Source: an uncultured Eubacteriales bacterium (GTDB lineage Bacteria > Bacillota > Clostridia > Christensenellales > Aristaeellaceae). From it: a DNA stretch of 64,000 nt. The notes below the pieces were generated by a model. It was not told where the DNA came from, did no database searches, and saw nothing but the letters and a program-made list of their open reading frames with translations. Shown one piece after another: positions 3,746 to 61,526 of this stretch. The DNA lies in NCBI GenBank assembly GCA_900320085.1, contig ONRC01000005.1, forward strand, positions 35,735-99,734. The letters are read 5' to 3'. The position numbers were made by a program, and so were the translations under genes. Each line of letters starts with the position of its first letter. Positions within the stretch are counted from its first letter, which is position 1.

Positions 3746-4425
3746 CACGACGGAGCGAGGGCCTATGCGGCCCTCGTGCACCTGCACCAGGAGATTTCTC
3801 ACGGGGCTGCCGCCCGGCCTACGCTGAGAATGATCCACTGGATCATTCTCCGGGCGCTTCAGCCCTCCTGGACCTCAATAGCGGAAACTACATGAATTGT
3901 AAAATCTGCTTGGTTCCCGCTGATACAGGGAAGAACGCGGAAGTCTGGCTTAGTGCCGTTGTGCTTCTGACCCGGCGGATGAATCGCCGATGACCGCCTG
4001 TGGCGGGAATTTCATCGGCGATGAAATCAGGCGAAACGAGCAATGTCCGCATGAAGCGGACTTGCGACGGCCTGCGGGGAACGCCGCCAGCCCGGATGCT
4101 TTGCATCCGGGGAAAGCCAGGGAAGAATCCGCAGGGGAAAGTTTACTTTCCCCCTCGGATTTTCCCGGGCTTTCTTGGGTCAGAAGTCCTCATCCTTTTC
4201 GTAACCCCAGCGCGACAGGCGGAGCTTGGCTGCTTTTCCCAACTACGTTATTTCGCCAAATGCGGGTCCAGGGACGAAGCACGGACAGCCGCCTGTGGCG
4301 GATGTTCTGTCCGTGCTGAGATCAGCCGAAACGAGCAATCTCGCCATGAAGGCGAGTTGCGACGATTGAGGCTGCGGATACTCAGGACCCTGGTTGGGGT
4401 CTGGGGCGAACAGCTGCGTGTTTTA
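3746..4425 (+). repeat. Family-A modular intergenic element, copy 1 (longest; carries modules M1, M2 twice, M3)
   Basis: Collinear sequence identity with 20941-21530 (+) and 31781-32055 (-). Starts 3 nt after the cca stop codon. Dense nested hairpins and no coding-like ORF. Confidence 0.85.
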
Positions 4426-8404: not shown

Positions 8405-8520
8405 CGTGCATCCGCTGGGGGCGCCGTCCGCAAAGATGGCTGAGACAGAACCCTTGGAACCTGTGTAGATCATCCTACCGTAGGGAAGCGGCGCGCGGCC
8501 TGAAAAGGCCTGCGTTTTAT
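8405..8520 (+). promoter_or_regulatory. TPP (THI-box) riboswitch with terminator-type expression platform
   Basis: CCGCUGGGGGCGCC...GGCUGAGACAGAACCCUUGGAACCUG...CUACCGUAGGGAAGCGG matches the THI-element conserved core (GGGG.GC, CUGAGA, ACCCUU.GAACCUG, GUAGGGAA). It is followed by GCGCGGCC-UGAAAA-GGCCUGCG-UUUU. The downstream gene is a ThiT-type transporter. Confidence 0.88.
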
Positions 8521-8593
8521 CCGTTTCCCACATGCGATATGGCATGTGGGTTTTTCATTTGAGGATGCAACAAAAGATAGGAGGCTGATATTC

Positions 8594-9313
8594 ATGGTAA
8601 CTCTTTGGGCGTCCGCCCTGGCCGAGGAAGCGGCGCAGGTCACGGAAGAAGTAACGGAAGCTGTGGCAGAAACGGCAGCGAAGGCCGACCCCACCTGGGC
8701 TCAGGAAGCGGTAGAAAAGTTTGCTGAAACCCCCGGTACGGTGTGGATCGCTCTGGGTGTGCTGGTGGCGCTGGGCGCCATTCTGCTGGCAATCGGTAAA
8801 ACCTCCAAAAAGTGGACGGCGAAAACTGTCGCTTTCGGCGCGCTGGCCATCGCCCTCTCCTTCGTGCTGTCCTGCATCCGGCTGTACCGTATGCCTCAGG
8901 GCGGCAGCGTGACCCCCGGTTCCATGCTGCCCCTGATGCTGTTCTCCGCGGCGTTTGGCGTTGGCCCCGGCCTGCTGGCGGGCCTGGCCTACGGCGTGCT
9001 GCAATATTTGCAGGGCGGCTGGTTTGCCAACGTGTGGCAGTTCGCGCTGGACTATCTGCTGGCCTTCGCAGCGTTGGGTCTGACAGGTGTGGCCAAGCAT
9101 CTGCCTGAAAAATGGGGCCTGTACTGCGCCATGGTCATCGCCGCCCTGTGCCGCGCCCTGTCCGCCACCCTGGCCGGCATCATGTTCTGGGACACCGCGC
9201 CCTGGGCCAGCCTGGTCTATAACGGCACCTACCTGATTCCCGACACCCTGATCTGCATTGTCCTGGCGATCCTGATCGCCAAGCCGGTGATGAAGGTGCT
9301 GAAAGCGAAGTAA
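8594..9313 (+). CDS. thiT: Thiamine ECF-transporter substrate-specific (S) component
   Basis: Multi-TM protein with the ThiT-like segment RLYRMPQGGSVTPGSMLPLMLFS, under a TPP riboswitch. ATG 8594 follows AGGAGG. It has a ~55 aa acidic/Ala-rich N-terminal extension, so the start is somewhat uncertain. Confidence 0.75.
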   Translation: MVTLWASALAEEAAQVTEEVTEAVAETAAKADPTWAQEAVEKFAETPGTVWIALGVLVALGAILLAIGKTSKKWTAKTVAFGALAIALSFVLSCIRLYRMPQGGSVTPGSMLPLMLFSAAFGVGPGLLAGLAYGVLQYLQGGWFANVWQFALDYLLAFAALGLTGVAKHLPEKWGLYCAMVIAALCRALSATLAGIMFWDTAPWASLVYNGTYLIPDTLICIVLAILIAKPVMKVLKAK

Positions 9314-9321
9314 GTGTTTTC

Positions 9322-9438
9322 AGGGATTAGGGAATAGGGATTAGGCATTAGATGAAAGTTTGCTATGCATTCGGCATCTTCATCTGATGCCTTTTCTTTT
9401 GTGTAATCCCTGACCCTAGTCCCTTTTCCCTAATCCCT
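9322..9438. repeat. Heptad-armed inverted repeat (unit AGGGATT/AGGGAAT) enclosing the thiT terminator
   Basis: Left arm is AGGGATT AGGGAAT AGGGATT AGGCATT (from 9322). Right arm is TAATCCC TGACCCT AGTCCCT TTTCCCT AATCCCT (9404-9438). The arms are largely complementary. Confidence 0.8.
9344..9400 (+). terminator. Intrinsic terminator of thiT
   Basis: GGCATTAGATGAAAG...CTTCATCTGATGCC stem (~14 bp, one G-U) followed by TTTTCTTTTG. Confidence 0.75.
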
Positions 9439-9732: not shown

Positions 9733-10145
9733 AGTTCTAAGTTCCAAGTTCTAAGTTTCAAGCTTATCGTGTTCGCTTCTCTTGGTCACACCATAACAGC
9801 TTATACTGTTTGTCTTCTAAATAATTGAGTAAAGAAACCCCTAAGCCTTCCCCTTGAGGGGAAGGTGCGCCGCGCGGAACCGACTGCATTGAAAGCATCG
9901 GGCATTTTCGCGCGGCTCGGATGAGGTGATTTGCAGGGATGCAGTCAAGAAACTAAAACGAATGCCAACATCACCTCAGAACGCTTCGCTACGCCTTCGG
10001 CCGCAGTCAGGCGCGAATGAACTTGATTTCTTTATCCAGCTTGGTTCCGCGCCTGACAGCTTCCCCTCAAGGGGAAGCCTTCTGGTTGGTATTCTTATTC
10101 AATGGTTTAGAAGATAAACAGTATTAGAACTTATAACTTAGAACT
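9733..10145. repeat. Three-layer nested palindromic element (heptad arms, 40-nt inverted repeat, family-B multi-hairpin core)
   Basis: Outer arms are AGTTCTA AGTTCCA AGTTCTA AGTTTCA (9733-9760) versus TAGAACT TATAACT TAGAACT (10125-10145). Inner inverted repeat is 9801-9838 versus 10088-10127. The core 9846-10079 is homologous in inverted orientation to 14993-15198. Confidence 0.85.
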
Positions 10146-14898: not shown

Positions 14899-14992
14899 GG
14901 GTGCTTTCCTCTCTAAATTCTTATTGGTGCGATGGATGATATAATGGAAATCTTCAATTCACAAACACAAGTAAGAAAAGCGTCTTCAAAAG

Positions 14993-15285
14993 CCTTCCCC
15001 TCGCAGGGGAAGGTGTCAGGCGCGGAAACAAGATGGAAAGCGTGATCAAGATAATCCGCGCCTGACGGATGAGGCGCTCCCCCAGTTACATGCTCACATA
15101 TTGCCGGGTGAGTTCACCTCATCCGAGCCGCGCGAACTATCTTGACTTCTTTTTCCTACTTTGTTCCGCGCGGCCCACCTTCCCCTGCGAGGGGAAGGCT
15201 TTTGGAAAACCTTTTACTGCTTTAAAGTTCCCTTTCTCAAACTCCTCTTTACAACCAAATGGGCCTTCCCCAAAGCGGGGAAGGC
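14993..15285. repeat. Family-B multi-hairpin element (five consecutive hairpins) plus one extra CCTTCCCC hairpin
   Basis: Hairpins: CCTTCCCCT-CGC-AGGGGAAGG, TCAGGCGCGGA...TCCGCGCCTGA, CGGATGAGG...CCTCATCCG, GCCGCGCGAA...TTCCGCGCGGC, CCTTCCCCT-GCG-AGGGGAAGG, then CCTTCCCC-AAAGC-GGGGAAGG at 15264-15285. Confidence 0.85.
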
Positions 15286-15301
15286 TTTATGGTGCCGTGA
15301 A

Positions 15302-17830: not shown

Positions 17831-17994
17831 GGAAGGTACTTCCTTTCAGGCGTTGTAGTCATTTTTAAAAGAGGTTATTGCGAAACCCCTCAGTCGGCTT
17901 CGCCGACAGCTCCCCTGATAGGGGAGCCGGGAACGGAAGCCTTTTTTGCCTCCCCTATCAGGGGAGGTGGCGCGAAGCGCCGGAGAGGTCCGGT

Positions 17995-20940: not shown

Positions 20941-21530
20941 GCAAAGGGAGACGACGAGGCGAGGGCCTGTGCGGCCCTCGTGCACCTGCACCAGGAGATT
21001 TCTCACGGGGCTGCCGCCCGGCCTACGCTGACAATGATCCACTGGATCATTGTCCGGGCGCTTCGGCCCTCCTGGACCTCAATAGCGGAAACTGTTTGAA
21101 TGATAAAGTCAGCTTGGTTCCCGCAGAAGCGGGGAGGAACGCGGAAGTCTGGCTTGGCGCCGTGGCGCTTCTGGCCCGGCGGCAAAGCCGCCAGCCCGGA
21201 TGCTTTGCATCCGGGGAAAGCCAGGGAATCAACCGCAGGGGTAAGTTCACTTTCCCCTGCGGTTGATTCCCTGGCTTTCTTGGGCCAGAAGCCCTCAAAC
21301 TATCCGTTACCCCAGCGCACCAGGCGGAGCTTGTTTGCTTACCTCAAATCCGTTATTTCGCCAGTTGCGGGTCCAGGGCAGTCACCGCCCTGGCGCAGGA
21401 CGAACCGCCGATGACCGCCTGTGGCGGAATTCTCATCGGCGGTGAGATCAGCCGAAACAAGCAATGTCCGTAGGACTTGCGCCGATTGAGGCTGCGGAAC
21501 TGGGGGGCGCGCAGCCCCCAGCGTTCCCTT
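20941..21530 (+). repeat. Family-A modular intergenic element, copy 2 (carries M1, M3, one M2)
   Basis: Near-identical to copy 1 over 20941-21180 and collinear thereafter. Lies between the gyrB upstream region and the mscL 3' end, antisense to both neighbours. Confidence 0.85.
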
Positions 21531-26110: not shown

Positions 26111-26225
26111 ACGTGTCGCCTCCTGAGAAGATATTCAGACTGAATCATACTGATGGCGGACAAGCTCAGCCTTAGAGCTTAGAACTTAAAACCCGTTATG
26201 CGCCATGTTCATTCGCCGGCAAAAA

Positions 26226-27162: not shown

Positions 27163-28442
<1,280 letters not shown>

Positions 28443-29262: not shown

Positions 29263-29323
29263 TTTCTCGGAAGGGGGCCAGGGGGAAACCGCTCTTTGGC
29301 CTACAAAGAGCGGTTTCCCCCAG
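29263..29323 (+). repeat. Family-C palindromic element, minimal copy C3
   Basis: TTTCTCGGAAGGGGGCCA then GGGGGAAACCGCTCTTTG-GCCTA-CAAAGAGCGGTTTCCCCC, a perfect 18-bp stem. Confidence 0.85.
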
Positions 29324-31707: not shown

Positions 31708-31780
31708 TCAGGAAAAAACGGGTCTTTCAGCGGGTATGCTGTTCCCAAGGATAAATCGTCCATCCAGCAAGAAGGAAACA

Positions 31781-32055
31781 CTGGGGTTTCACCCCAGACC
31801 CCACCAGGGTCCTGAGGACCCTGGACCCACAACTGGCGAATTATCCTGGTTGGGTAAAGCAGGCAAGCTCCGCCTGGTGCGCTGGGCCAGAAGCACAACG
31901 GCATCAAGTCAAACTTCCGCATTTCTCCATGCCTTTACGGGAACCAAGCTGATTCACCAGACCAAGCTATTTCCGCTATTGGAGTCCAGAGGATGAAATC
32001 CTTTGGTGCAGGGGTACGGGGCCGCATAGGCCCCTGCCTCGTCGTAACCCTTTGC
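31781..32055 (-). repeat. Family-A element, copy 3 (minimal 275-nt core without M1/M2/M3 modules)
   Basis: The reverse complement aligns end to end with the conserved blocks of copies 1 and 2. Begins 72 nt after the ABC ATPase stop and ends upstream of the NahK-like promoter. Confidence 0.85.
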
Positions 32056-32127
32056 AGCATCAATAATGTAGAAAAGAATACCAACAAACGCAAAAATGTG
32101 GAGCCGCATGGGCCCCACACTTTTGCT

Positions 32128-42111: not shown

Positions 42112-45669
<3,558 letters not shown>

Positions 45670-45715
45670 GGATACAAACTCCCTCCGTTGTGGCGCGGGT
45701 TGAACAGTCGGGGCC

Positions 45716-45819
45716 GAGTGTGCAGAGTTCAGAGTACAGAGTTCAGATGATATACCCGATCAATTTCGATTTGCGCAGAGCACTCACTATCTTATCTGTA
45801 CTCTGAACTCTGCACTCTA
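45716..45819. repeat. Heptad-armed inverted repeat (unit CAGAGTT/CAGAGTA) in the rpoB-rpoC spacer
   Basis: Left arm CAGAGTT CAGAGTA CAGAGTT CAGATGA (45723-45750). Right arm TACTCTG AACTCTG CACTCTA (45799-45819). About 23 bp potential stem. Confidence 0.85.
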
Positions 45820-45850
45820 AAAATCTTCTGCCTATCAGATAAACCCCGGC

Positions 45851-48800
45851 TTATTCTAAGTCGTCATCGTCGTCCAGCTTCAGGTCATCCAGCATATCGT
45901 CGGCCTCGAAGTCGGCAAAATCGTCGTCCAAGGTGATATCTTCGTCCAGCTCCAGCGAATCGGTTTCGTCCAGGGCAGGCGCGTCGTCGTAATCCGTCTC
46001 GGGCAGGGGCTCGCGTCCGGCGGGGATGGAATCGCCCAGATCGTCGTCCTCGTCGTCCAGCTCGCGGATTTCGATTTCTTCCTTGTTTTCGTTCAGCACG
46101 CGGATATCCAGCGCCAGGGCCTGCAGCTCCTTGATGAGCACCTTGAAGGATTCGGGCACGCCGGGCGTGGGGATGTTCTGGCCCTTCACGATGGCTTCGT
46201 AGGTCTTGACGCGGCCCACGATGTCGTCGGACTTGACGGTCAGGATTTCCTGCAATGTGTTCGCAGCGCCGTAGGCTTCCAGCGCCCACACTTCCATCTC
46301 GCCAAAGCGCTGGCCGCCGAACTGGGCCTTGCCGCCCAGAGGCTGCTGCGTGACGAGGGAGTAAGGGCCGGTGGAGCGGGCGTGCATCTTGTCGTCCACC
46401 AGATGGTGCAGCTTCAGGAAGTACATGATGCCCACGGTAACGGGGTTTTCAAAGGGATCGCCGGTGCGGCCGTCGTACAGGATGGTCTTGCCGTCGGGAC
46501 GCAAACCGGCCTTTTGCAGACATTCTTCAATATCTTCCTTGGTCGCGCCGTCAAACACGGGGGTCGCGATGTGCCAGCCCAGGGTCCGGGCCGCGATGCC
46601 AAGGTGGACCTCCAGCACCTGCCCGATGTTCATACGGGAAGGCACACCCAGGGGGTTCAGCACGATGTCCAGCGGCGTTCCGTCGGGCAGGAAGGGCATG
46701 TCCTCCTCGCGCAGGATACGGGACACGACGCCCTTGTTGCCGTGGCGCCCGGACATCTTGTCGCCGACGGAGATCTTTCTCTTCTGCGCGATATACACGC
46801 GCACCATTTCGTTGACGCCGGGGCTCAGCTCGTCCTTGTTTTCACGGGTGAAAATCTTCACGTCCACGATGATGCCGCCCTCGCCGTGAGGAACCTTCAA
46901 GGAGGTGTCGCGCACTTCGCGGGCTTTTTCACCAAAGATGGCCCGCAGCAGGCGTTCCTCGGCGGTCAGCTCGGTTTCGCCCTTGGGGGTGACTTTGCCC
47001 ACCAGGATGTCGCCGCTGCGCACCTCCGCGCCGATGCGGATGATGCCGTTTTCGTCCAGATCGCGCACCGCGTCCTCGCCCACGTTGGGAATATCGCGGG
47101 TGATTTCTTCCGGGCCCAGCTTGGTTTCGCGGGCTTCGGACTCGTATTCTTCAATATGAATGGAGGTGTATTTGTCGTACTTGACCAGGCGTTCGCTGAT
47201 CAGCACGGCGTCCTCGTAGTTGTAGCCTTCCCAGGTCATGAAGCCGATGAGCATATTCTTGCCCAGGCCGATTTCGCCGTTCTCGGTGGAGGGGCCGTCG
47301 GCCAGCAGGTCGCCCACTTCGATCTTCTGTCCCTGATAGACGCGGGGGCGCTGGTTGATGCAGGTGCCCTGGTTGGAGCGGGCGAACTTGGTCAGGTGGT
47401 AGCTGTGCTTTTCGCCCAGCTCGTCCTGAATGACCACTTCGTCCGCCGCCACGGAATACACCGTGCCCGCGTGCTTGGAAAGCAGCACCACGCCGGAGTC
47501 GTGGGCGGCCTTGTATTCCATGCCGGTGCCCACGATGGGGGCTTCGGGCACCAGCAGCGGCACGGCCTGACGCTGCATGTTGGAGCCCATCAGGGCGCGG
47601 TTGGCGTCGTCGTTTTCCAGGAAGGGGATCATGGCCGTGGCCACGGACACCACCTGCTTGGGCGACACGTCGATATAGTCCACGTCCTTGGCGGGCACTT
47701 CGATGGTCTCGTCGCGCCAACGCACCACGACGCGCTTGTTGATGAAGCGGTTGTTTTCGTCCAGGGGCTCCTTGGCCTGGCCCACCTTATAGTTGTCTTC
47801 CTCGTCGGCGGTCATGTAGACGATTTCGTCCGTCACCTGGCCCGTTTCCTTGTTCACCTTGCGGTAAGGCGCTTCGATGAAGCCGTACTCGTTGATGCGG
47901 GCGTAGGTGGCCAGAGAGCCGATCAGGCCGATGTTGGGGCCTTCAGGCGTCTCGATGGGGCAGATGCGGGCGTAGTGGGAATAGTGCACGTCGCGCACTT
48001 CCATGCTGGCGCGGTCGCGGTTCAGGCCGCCGGGGCCCAGAGCGGACAGACGGCGCTTGTGGGTCAGCTCCGCCAGGGGGTTGGGCTGGTCCATGAACTG
48101 GGACAGCTGGGAGGAGCCGAAGAACTCCTTGATGGCGGCGGACACCGGGCGGATGTTGATCAGTTCGCCGGGCTTGACGTCGTTGGCGTCCTGAATGGCC
48201 ATGCGCTCGCGCACCACGCGCTCCAGGCGACTTAAGCCGATGCGCACCTGGTTTTGCAGCAGCTCGCCCACGCTGCGCAGGCGGCGGTTGCCCAGATGGT
48301 CGATATCGTCGATGGTGCCCACACCGTAGGGCAGGCCCAGCAGATAGCTGACGGAGGCCACGATGTCGTCGATGATGATGTGCTTGGGCACCAGGTTGTA
48401 TACGTTTTCGGAAACGACCCGCTTCAAATCCTCGGCGGGGGTTTCTTCGATGATTTTAAGCAAAGTGGGCAGGTGCACCATTTCCAGGATGCCCGCTTCC
48501 CTGGGATCGAAGGGCAGGAAGCCCCGGGCGTCGGCAAAGTTGTTGCCCAGCACCTTGTGCACCACGTTTTCGCACTGCAAAAGCACCGCGTTCACACCGG
48601 CATTCTGGATCTCAATGGCGGTTTCGCGGGAGATCACATTGCCCTTTTCCACCATCACTTCGCCGCTGATGGGGTTGATAATGTCCTCGGCGGCCACCTG
48701 GCCCGCGATACGGGCGGACAGGCCCAGCTTCTTATTGAACTTATAGCGGCCCACGCGCATCAGGTCATAGCGCTTGGGGTCAAAGAACAGGCTGCGCAGC

Positions 48801-49564
48801 AGGGCGCGGGCGCCGTCCTCGGTGGGCGGCTCGCCGGGCTTCTGGCGCTTGTAGATTTCCAGCAGGCCCTGGGTCTGGGTCTTGGTCTGGTCGGAGCGGG
48901 CGATGGTGGCCATCAGCCGTTCGTCCTCGCCCAGCAGGTCATAAATTTCCTGGTCGGTGCCGTAGCCCAGCGCACGCAGAAGCACCGTGATGGGCAGCTT
49001 GCGGGCGCGGTCAATACGCACCCACAGCACATCGTTGTTGTCGGTTTCATATTCCAGCCAGGCGCCCCGGTTGGGGATGATCTGGGAGGAGAACAGGTGC
49101 TTGCCCGACTTGTCGATGGTGTCGCCGAAATAAGCGCCGGGCGAACGCACCAGCTGGCTGACAATGACGCGCTCCGCGCCATTGATGATAAAAGTGCCAT
49201 GCTCGGTCATCAGCGGGAAATCACCCATAAAGACTTCCGATTCCTTGATTTCGCCGGTCTCCCGGTTCTTCAGGCGGACGAAAACCTTCAGCGGGGCCGC
49301 GTAGGTCAGGTCGCGTTCCTTGCACCGCTCCACAGAATTCTTGGGCGTGCCGTCGAGCGAGTAATCGACGAATTCCAACACCAGATTTTCGCTGTAATCC
49401 GTGATGGGAGACACGTCCGCCAGAACCTCTTTCAGATCTTCGGTCAGAAAACGCTTATAGCTGTTTTTCTGCACCTCGATCAGGTTGGGCATGTCCAGAA
49501 CCTCGTCGATGCGCGAGAAGCTCATGCGCTTTCGCAGCTTCCCCATTTGGACCTCGTGCACCAT
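45851..49564 (-). CDS. rpoB: DNA-directed RNA polymerase subunit beta, with ~85 aa poly-acidic C-terminal tail
   Basis: 1237 aa. [28 protein letters not shown] and [15 protein letters not shown] motifs. The tail is DDEDDDLGD...[25 protein letters not shown]. Confidence 0.98.
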
Positions 49565-61429: not shown

Positions 61430-61526
61430 AGGCAGTAGGCAGTAGGCAATAGGCAGTAGATAAGGAAGTGTGCGCAGTGTGTACTTTTTCTTAATGCCTA
61501 CTGCCTACTGCCTAATGCCTATTGCC
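61430..61526. repeat. Heptad-armed inverted repeat (unit AGGCAGT/AGGCAAT) immediately upstream of the GH88 RBS
   Basis: Left arm AGGCAGT AGGCAGT AGGCAAT AGGCAGT (61430-61457). Right arm TAATGCC TACTGCC TACTGCC TAATGCC TATTGCC (61492-61526). Confidence 0.85.

Follow-up and report, generated by a model that had tools for sequence, protein, structure and literature searches.

Heptanucleotide repeats have been catalogued in genomes since 1990 and have neither an accepted origin nor an accepted function, and the intervening sequences of 23S rRNA genes, together with the S23p/IVP (intervening sequence protein) family, are likewise unexplained. The cyanobacterial short tandemly repeated repetitive (STRR) heptanucleotide sequences were reportedly described by Mazel in 1990. 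Other cases are the heptamer long simple sequence repeats of Mrazek 2007, as cited in a passage of PMC4679880, the TAACTGA repeats (PMC4679880), the GGGAATC inverted pairs of Xanthomonas, with 70-75 convergent pairs (PMC4692102), and the heptanucleotide pairs of Geobacter (PMC2700814). The intervening sequence of the Coxiella 23S rRNA gene is a selfish element placed in helix 45, which encodes S23p and has a terminal stem of 28 bp; RNase III excises it, and the number of its GACAGAT heptamers depends on the strain (PMC4990558). The PF05635 proteins are homologous to Avd, the accessory protein of diversity-generating retroelements (PMC10053308). The present analysis concerns a stretch of 64,000 nucleotides (hereafter the window) of contig ONRC01000005.1 from an uncultured Eubacteriales bacterium, in which a long hairpin with heptad-repeat arms separates rpoB from rpoC. 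We lean towards regarding this hairpin as a gene-less miniature of a foldback element of the intervening sequence type, dispersed, non-coding and tolerated.

The existence of a long heptad-armed hairpin at this place, claimed in a preliminary description of the window made from the sequence alone, is borne out. It is built of CAGAGTT/CAGAGTA units, its stem has 24 nt per arm with 96% complementarity and a 54-nt gap, and both flanking genes were confirmed by Pfam. The features of the locus are the following.

45717-45818, minus strand: whole foldback element of the rpoB-rpoC spacer, two heptad arms around an AT-rich centre of 54 nt, co-transcribed
45717-45740, unstranded: arm 1, AGTGTG CAGAGTT CAGAGTA CAGA
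45741-45794, unstranded: centre (loop) of the element, 41% GC as against about 60% for the genome
45795-45818, unstranded: arm 2, TCTG TACTCTG AACTCTG CACTCT, complementary to arm 1
45844-45850, minus strand: GCCGGGG directly past the rpoB stop codon, paired in the minimum free energy (MFE) fold with 45707-45716 (CGGCCCCGAC, sense strand)
45851-49564, minus strand: rpoB, the upstream gene (Pfam)
42112-45669, minus strand: rpoC, the downstream gene (Pfam)

The RNA of the 181-nt spacer is predicted to fold with -65.2 kcal/mol (z = -4.2 against shuffles), and the 24-bp stem is retained in both the MFE and the centroid folds. An extra unit next to arm 1, GTTCAGA at 45741-45747, stays unpaired, and no open reading frame (ORF) is present in the 54-nt centre. 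The pairing between GCCGGGG and CGGCCCCGAC brackets the element, and GC stem-loops stand at the same place in the comparison loci L006, L213 and L215 (such L-numbers are labels of comparison contigs and loci). For these reasons the two segments may be left over from an earlier GC stem-loop, in whose loop the element was inserted. The hairpin was also compared with known bacterial RNA families, promoters and terminators, and matched none of them. Only generic miRNA-precursor hairpins below threshold were obtained from Rfam, with nothing at the gathering score; no promoter-like features were found, no terminator-like site exists on either strand between 45500 and 46000 and no U-tract follows the stem. 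As a separate observation on the upstream gene, the terminal tail of RpoB in this clade is long and acidic (D/E-rich), and it is variable in length and sequence among close relatives (45851-46100 in the window).

The window was scanned for self-similarity at periods 4-15, the expectation being taken from Markov shuffles. Eight period-7 arrays were observed where 0.03 were expected; periods 4, 5, 8-11 and 13 gave none, and the small number found at 6, 12 and 15 is related to codons. All eight are arms of four short-looped intergenic hairpins or the left arm of a fifth (9733-10145). The window thus confirms what had been proposed, a class of five hairpins that share one design with period-7 arms, and the excess of this period over the others. 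The right arm of the fifth hairpin and two solo arms were obtained from Tandem Repeats Finder and a period-14 scan. Besides the rpoB-rpoC element the class comprises the following members.

28330-28442, minus strand: CAGAGTW hairpin between an rluA-like gene and tgt, starting 2 nt past the upstream stop codon
61430-61527, minus strand: AGGCAGT/AGGCAAT hairpin in the spacer that separates an ABC permease gene from a GH88 gene
9322-9438, plus strand: AGGGATT/AGGGAAT hairpin filling the spacer of convergent thiT-like and S4-domain genes
9733-10145, minus strand: AGTTCTA/AGTTCCA hairpin with arms at 9733-9762 and 10124-10145 and a 322-nt MITE (miniature inverted-repeat transposable element; 9803-10124) in its centre
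26171-26192, unstranded: solo arm of AGTTCTA/AGCTCTA type, partnerless
1868-1894, unstranded: degenerate solo arm AGGGAAT AGAGATG AGAGAAT AGGG, partnerless

The RNA folds of these other hairpins reach z values of -6.8 to -7.9, and two of them mismatch at every seventh base pair, which is the variable position of the unit; the stem at 28330-28442 has its mismatch each 7 bp. Their loops measure 35-62 nt, a narrower range than the 27-250 nt given in the preliminary description. The sole exception is the gap of 369 nt between 9733-9762 and 10124-10145, which is explained by the MITE sitting in the centre. The alternation of two unit variants described there is loose: the variants are present and their order may be ABA, AABA or ABAC. 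At their variable positions the arms are often non-complementary to each other, so that selection on pairing is inseparable from conservation of the unit in a test of compensatory changes. A G-quadruplex was discarded as the common property because it suits the AGGGAWT family only.

Some side observations follow. The 5' arms are nearly always on the purine-rich strand and often resemble Shine-Dalgarno sequences (AGGAG, GGAGG, GAGG), as at 9322-9345 and 61430-61459 in the window, 4124-4155 in L251 and 552-583 in L310; the 3' arms are therefore anti-Shine-Dalgarno-like. A thiamine pyrophosphate (TPP) riboswitch (61 bits, 8407-8503) precedes the ThiT-like thiamine transporter gene (8546-9313), after whose 3' end the AGGGATT hairpin comes. 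It is the only Rfam family in the window, which contains no rRNA. The 91-aa S4-domain protein has no exact match on record. What looks like a second, distinct class of intergenic palindromes, GC-rich, near-perfect, short-looped and without 7-nt periodicity, occurs at 21216-21279 (31-nt arms, 97%, 2-nt loop), 29281-29321, 4121-4166 and 17904-17972.

The RpoC of the window is nearest to those of uncultured Clostridia metagenome-assembled genomes, with 91% identity as the best value in the genome collection. An identical RpoC is present on 12 contigs, of which the 10 listed are ENA metagenome contigs, several apparently from cattle rumen. In 10 rumen metagenome contigs the rpoB-rpoC element is unchanged at a flank divergence of 0-0.8%, and the hairpin at 28330-28442 is likewise invariant in 10 strains whose flanks diverge by up to 2.1%. 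The solo arm at 26171-26192 differs by two single-nucleotide polymorphisms among strains and therefore looks like a decaying remnant.

A comparison of orthologous spacers, which the preliminary description had recommended, showed that the hairpin is not kept in the relatives, being replaced by another heptad hairpin, a GC stem-loop or nothing. The closest of these, L211/L212 (RpoC 98% identical in amino acids and 95% in nucleotides), have a 134-nt spacer with an AGGGAWT hairpin (AGGGAAT/AGGGATG/AGGGATT ... CCCTAAT), and only the last 31-34 nt ahead of the rpoC ATG can be aligned with the window. A plain GC-rich stem-loop occupies the spacer in L213, L215 and L006 (RpoC 96%, 94% and 91%, respectively). 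The spacers of L217 (RpoC 92%; 34 nt) and of L001-L003 and L007 (RpoC 67-85%; 20-35 nt) are hairpin-free. The CAGAGTW hairpin is thus missing or replaced in relatives at 86-95% nucleotide identity, and judging from these alignments the rpoB-rpoC hairpin is not conserved and is probably a recent, species-specific copy. Heptad hairpins as a class are restricted to the closest relatives of the window species. The window has five plus two solo arms, L211 has three in 23.5 kb, L213 has one and the loci L215, L217 and L001-L006 have none; only 6 period-7 arrays were found in 1.04 Mb of other Clostridia loci.

The surroundings of rpoBC are themselves variable. Gene order differs on both sides per species despite RpoC identities of 92-98% (L211-L218 compared with 32000-56000 of the window). 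In one strain a transposase of the IS110 family is inserted 115 nt downstream of rpoC (L088, 6400-7575). In L087 (578-6157) rplJ and a small unannotated ORF, possibly rplL, precede a 1441-aa rpoB call; the upstream context of this contig is different, or the contig is chimeric.

These comparisons bear on the role in balancing rpoB and rpoC that had been implied for the hairpin. According to this explanation a host-selected RNA element, acting as a processing site, as a stabiliser of the rpoB mRNA 3' end or as a partial attenuator, tunes rpoB against rpoC, and its structure is kept while its sequence turns over. A stem-loop of some sort is indeed present in the spacers of the window, L211, L213, L215 and L006, the hairpin is invariant in the 10 strains, its stem is very stable and the rplL-rpoB spacer of E. 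coli has an RNase III site. Nevertheless L217, L001-L003 and L007 manage with short hairpin-free spacers, the same element families recur in unrelated operons and in late operons of prophages, and neither a U-tract nor terminator- or promoter-like features accompany the stem. Moreover, that its place is taken elsewhere by another hairpin of this repeat class points to a hot spot of insertion more than to selection on structure. We consider a tuning role unlikely, and the balancing function is not upheld.

The way in which these elements change can be followed at the 61-kb site, which was compared across contigs with an identical 304-aa permease and flanks 93-100% identical to the window. The AGGCAWT hairpin has 5 + 4 units in the window, L229 and L230, 4 + 4 units in L235, and 5 + 3 units with reshuffled variants in L232 and L234, while in L236 a single variant base is changed. 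In L231 and L238 the site carries an AGTTCAG/AGTTCAA/AGTTCTA hairpin with a different centre, in L233 a CAGAGTG hairpin is nested within degenerate AGGCAWT outer arms, and L237 is without a heptad hairpin and also has a different downstream gene. Heptad families thus replace one another and nest within one another at this site. The gain or loss of single units, one arm at a time, shows that slippage operates among strains. The common generating mechanism that had been suggested for the class is in this respect partly supported, slippage of heptads by one 7-nt unit in one arm being the part that stands.

The four unit sequences had been considered unrelated, which has to be revised. AGTTCAG is CAGAGTT in rotated form, a single arm of L231 contains the series AGTTCAG, AGTTCAA and AGTTCTA, and in L211 arms of AGGCAWT and AGGGAWT pair with each other. 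The families are joined by single-base steps and are therefore not unrelated. The centres of these hairpins do receive insertions, as the 322-nt MITE (9803-10124) that lies centrally in the AGTTCTA hairpin is polymorphic and is found at a different site in strains L219, L223 and L227. This MITE has the ends ATACTGTTTGTCTTCTAAA and inner GGGGAAGG hairpins. Its site in L219, L223 and L227 is occupied in the window by another element of about 356 nt (31727-32082), and a long palindrome related to the MITE is located at 14969-15288.

Copies of the CAGAGTW element at unlinked loci share the terminal order AGAGTG CAGAGTT CAGAGTA ... CAGAT, centre, ATCTG .... The outer AGAGTG and the CAGAT/ATCTG inner boundary are present in the two window copies and in L125, L166, L167, L171, L191 and L205, and further in L211, L233, L247 and L251. 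Most of their centres are unrelated (27-49% GC, 41-66 nt), with a mean homology z of 0.9 over 55 pairs and few pairs clearly related. Two composite paralogous copies in L125 have a common centre, as do the prophage copies in L247 and L251, and the centre of the rpoB-rpoC element has GATAGTGA...AATTG..GATC in common, by eye, with the centres of the latter two. The possibility that the centres are captured foreign DNA was tried in a limited test and rejected, the five window centres having no BLAST match in 50,697 phage records. No second copy of any of the five was found in the sequences gathered for comparison.

Outside this lineage the pattern CAGAGTWCAGAGTWCAGAG occurs in at least 120 metagenome contigs with GC contents from 33 to 70%, 15 of which have an inverted partner within 120 nt. 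Viral contigs contain CAGAGTK arrays in 13 loci and AGGCAWT arrays in 57, with 50 hairpins in 647 kb and AGGCAGT hairpins reaching 4 per 7.8 kb. L251 is a genuine prophage in which one hairpin lies between terL and the portal gene and a second between the genes of a ClpP-type protease and the capsid. The presence of hairpins in viral contigs and prophage operons indicates that the design is common, tolerated in tight operons and phage-borne. Six heptad arrays are assembled in L205 (7.2 kb, GC 0.46), namely CGTGAGT, a CCAGGAA hairpin, TCGGGAG, TAACTGA, a CAGAGTK hairpin and GTGACAG; the TAACTGA array is the repeat described in Beggiatoaceae.

The abundance in phage genomes could also be taken as a sign that the arms are double-stranded DNA sites of convergent heptads, bound by a global regulator, a nucleoid protein or a phage repressor (as omega of the inc18 plasmids), the hairpin being a by-product. 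Six of the seven unit positions are conserved and one is degenerate, and the variable positions of the arms do not co-vary. Moreover, about 19 copies read 5'-CAGAGTT...AACTCTG-3' and 3-4 are reversed, a bias that is non-independent because of shared ancestry, and the heptanucleotide pairs of Geobacter have been annotated as predicted sites of a global regulator (PMC2700814). However, the sites lie past stop codons and between cistrons and not at promoters, the several unit families would require several proteins, and nesting, replacement and decay to solo arms are the behaviour of repeated elements. In addition, the arms of rRNA intervening sequences work as RNA stems (PMC4990558). A function as DNA sites is in our opinion quite unlikely.

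Formation of the hairpins in place, with no dispersal between loci, is very improbable. In this model a local heptamer would slip, and intrastrand template switching would use one arm to generate the other. In its favour, single-unit changes in single arms show that slippage operates, sub-arrays of related units are adjacent in many contigs, centres are mostly unrelated, and in many bacteria no long simple repeats are more common than heptamers (Mrazek 2007, in the passage of PMC4679880 that cites it). Against it, unlinked loci and other genomes have the units, the terminal order and the CAGAT/ATCTG inner boundary in common, a number of copies have homologous centres, and the ancestral spacer is not the source of the centres.

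A link with a protein emerged from longer elements. No parent insertion sequence (IS) was found between distant matching arrays and this candidate was abandoned; gaps of about 520 nt exposed IVP genes instead. The inverted arrays at this distance enclose small ORFs which belong to PF05635 (23S_rRNA_IVP) / TIGR02436 ('four helix bundle protein'). When all collected sequence was searched iteratively, six IVP genes were found. All five PF05635/TIGR02436 genes in the 120 contigs with the CAGAGTW pattern are placed between or beside heptad arrays (L091, L199, L157, L165, L122), and a heptad hairpin lies 75 nt upstream of the sole IVP gene in the rpoC-selected Clostridia control set (L067).

IVP genes in other taxa are also located between arms of the same unit. 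A tblastn search of plasmids with IVP gave 30 records. Cyanobacteria account for at least 25 of these (14 from Nostoc, 4 from Calothrix), and Gemmatirosa and Azospirillum are also represented. Eight plasmid IVP genes were sampled by protein similarity, with flanks not known beforehand, and short tandem arrays flank all eight, being heptads in seven and octads in one (Gemmatirosa). In Anabaena, N. punctiforme, Picosynechococcus, Azospirillum and Calothrix the heptads around the gene are clearly inverted; those of PCC 7120 are confined to one side, and Pseudanabaena has direct as well as inverted ones. Several of the sampled genes are within operons (cas6, IVP, cas4; cas10, IVP, cmr3). The Azospirillum gene (L317) is inside a 23S rRNA gene of 3199 nt, the model having 2925 nt, and its two flanking arrays are the only ones of at least three heptads in 50 kb. 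The octad arrays of Gemmatirosa (CTCCTGCC) flank the IVP gene at 601-936 of L311. Period 7 is thus not the only one in which this design exists, and a hairpin with nonamer arms (AGTGGGTTT x3 / AAACCCACT x3) is present in a prophage region of Azospirillum (L317, 25615-25735).

The heptad arms and the IVP genes are thus associated in genomes other than that of the window. The heptamer-IVP link is not mentioned in the papers on the heptamers of Xanthomonas, Nostoc and Beggiatoaceae, and in the literature searched S23p and heptamers are joined only by the Coxiella paper; the arm sequences themselves were not found there in a bacterial context. A query of viral contigs with a single IVP protein gave no matches. 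The preliminary description had envisaged a periodic ligand or a co-occurring protein, for which the 23S_rRNA_IVP genes flanked by inverted heptads in many other genomes provide a candidate; the other side of this result is that no such gene occurs in about 250 kb of the lineage.

Taking the hairpin as a gene-less foldback element of the intervening sequence type, the following course of events can be proposed. The elements, each with two inverted arms of 3-5 imperfect heptanucleotide subrepeats and an AT-rich centre of about 35-60 nt, would have entered this lineage of rumen Clostridia recently. They lie in gene-3'-proximal and intercistronic spacers, often in or beside existing stem-loops, the centres of one another included, where they gain or lose 7-nt units in single arms, are replaced and decay to solo arms. 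The short forms would be miniature counterparts of longer elements whose heptad arms enclose an S23p/IVP (Avd-like) gene, among them the 23S intervening sequences, from which we suppose that they descended. In the transcript the arms would pair as a stem of 21-24 bp that brings the flanks together and that is probably, by analogy with the rRNA intervening sequences, a substrate of RNase III, whose cut could leave a protective 3' stem on the rpoB mRNA. Since it folds out and is probably cleaved by RNase III, the element would be tolerated even in the rpoB-rpoC spacer, and its effect on rpoBC expression is presumed to be near-neutral. Mobility would be the mode of spread, and new copies could come from an IVP-dependent process, from another recombinase or from recombination mediated by the arms.

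Several observations weigh against this interpretation. Neither an IVP gene nor a transposase or other mobilising candidate was found in the window or in the approximately 250 kb of lineage contigs, a search of the window for a transposase or RAYT (the Y1 transposase of repetitive extragenic palindromes) having been equally negative. No target-site duplication is visible at the ends inspected (window copies, L125, L167, L233), no longer parent element with the same arms was found in the lineage, and matching arrays at distances of up to 4 kb enclose no transposase. The unrelated centres of most copies are not predicted by a simple copy-and-paste of whole elements and require fast divergence of the centre, recombination mediated by the arms, or nested insertion followed by decay. 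In addition, some hairpin recurs in the rpoB-rpoC spacer of several relatives, and the invariance of the rpoBC and 28-kb hairpins, the flanks diverging by up to 2.1%, could reflect purifying selection on a function.

With the hairpin read as a foldback insertion, a conspicuous structure in a core transcription operon is probably a tolerated parasite and not a regulator, and the intercistronic spacers of this genome turn over within about 5% sequence divergence. The elements serve as strain markers and are possible RNase III sites splitting operon transcripts. Since heptad arrays stand at IVP genes and the same families occur as gene-less hairpins in operons and prophages, the two puzzles of heptamers and intervening sequences become one testable hypothesis. 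It can tentatively be extended, as a possibility to which we give less than even weight, to all heptad-armed palindromes as one widespread class of mobile foldback elements in bacteria and phages, in which the long forms carry S23p/IVP as a 7-nt-periodic ligand of the arms that aids spread or maintenance, and the short forms are non-autonomous. If this were true, the cyanobacterial STRRs, the excess of heptamers in bacteria and the 23S rRNA intervening sequences would have a common origin, and a function would be assigned to a large and so far functionless protein family.

Among the known systems, intrinsic terminators differ from the rpoB-rpoC hairpin in having a short GC-rich stem with a U-tract, such a site being absent at 45500-46000. 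The bacterial MITEs (Correia, RUP, BOX, ERIC) are similarly small, non-coding, hairpin-forming, intergenic, co-transcribed and variable in presence among strains, but no target-site duplication or parent IS was found for the window element, its arms have a 7-nt periodicity and its centres are unconserved. The foldback (FB) elements of Drosophila are eukaryotic transposable elements. They have in common with the window class the long inverted arms of short tandem subrepeats, the copy-variable arm length and the variable centre with or without a gene, although they are much larger, have subrepeats of 10-31 bp and offer no evidence of common ancestry.

The REPINs or REP-BIMEs (inverted pairs of repetitive extragenic palindromes, mobilised by RAYT; PMC3116915) are alike in their size of about 100 nt, their two conserved inverted ends and their less conserved spacer of fairly constant length. 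They too are extragenic, have singlets that are decayed remnants and commonly differ between strains (PMC3116915). However, their ends are small palindromes with a GTAG-type tail, whereas the window arms are on inspection direct heptad arrays without an internal palindrome, and they have a cognate RAYT, none of which was seen in the window.

The heptamer repeats, including the STRRs, come closer, as they are intergenic tandem 7-nt units (at least three) that have no accepted function, come in several sequences within one genome and often form convergent pairs. The differences are that the window host belongs to the rumen Clostridia, STRRs in the strict sense being cyanobacterial, and that in the window short arrays of 3-5 imperfect units nearly always have an inverted partner. 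The papers on these repeats report no link to mobile elements or IVP genes.

The 23S intervening sequences (Coxiella, Leptospira, Azospirillum L317) differ in being placed in helix 25 or 45 of rRNA and not in mRNA spacers, in having a central PF05635/TIGR02436 ORF where the window copies have a centre of 35-60 nt without an ORF, and in that excision by RNase III is documented for the one of Coxiella, the window copy having a predicted, substrate-like stem. Nevertheless they share with it the terminal inverted repeats with a stem of more than 20 bp (24 bp and 96% in the window copy) and the tandem heptamers in the arms. The strain-variable number of these heptamers is seen in the window class at the 61-kb member, the rpoBC copy being invariant. 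Both are sporadic and lineage-specific in distribution and more AT-rich than the host, and both are tolerated by folding out, with insertion at the tip of an existing stem-loop, which is what the GC segments around the rpoBC copy suggest. The known kinds behind the element are thus the heptanucleotide repeats and the rRNA intervening sequences, and the general association between heptad arms and IVP genes is worth following.

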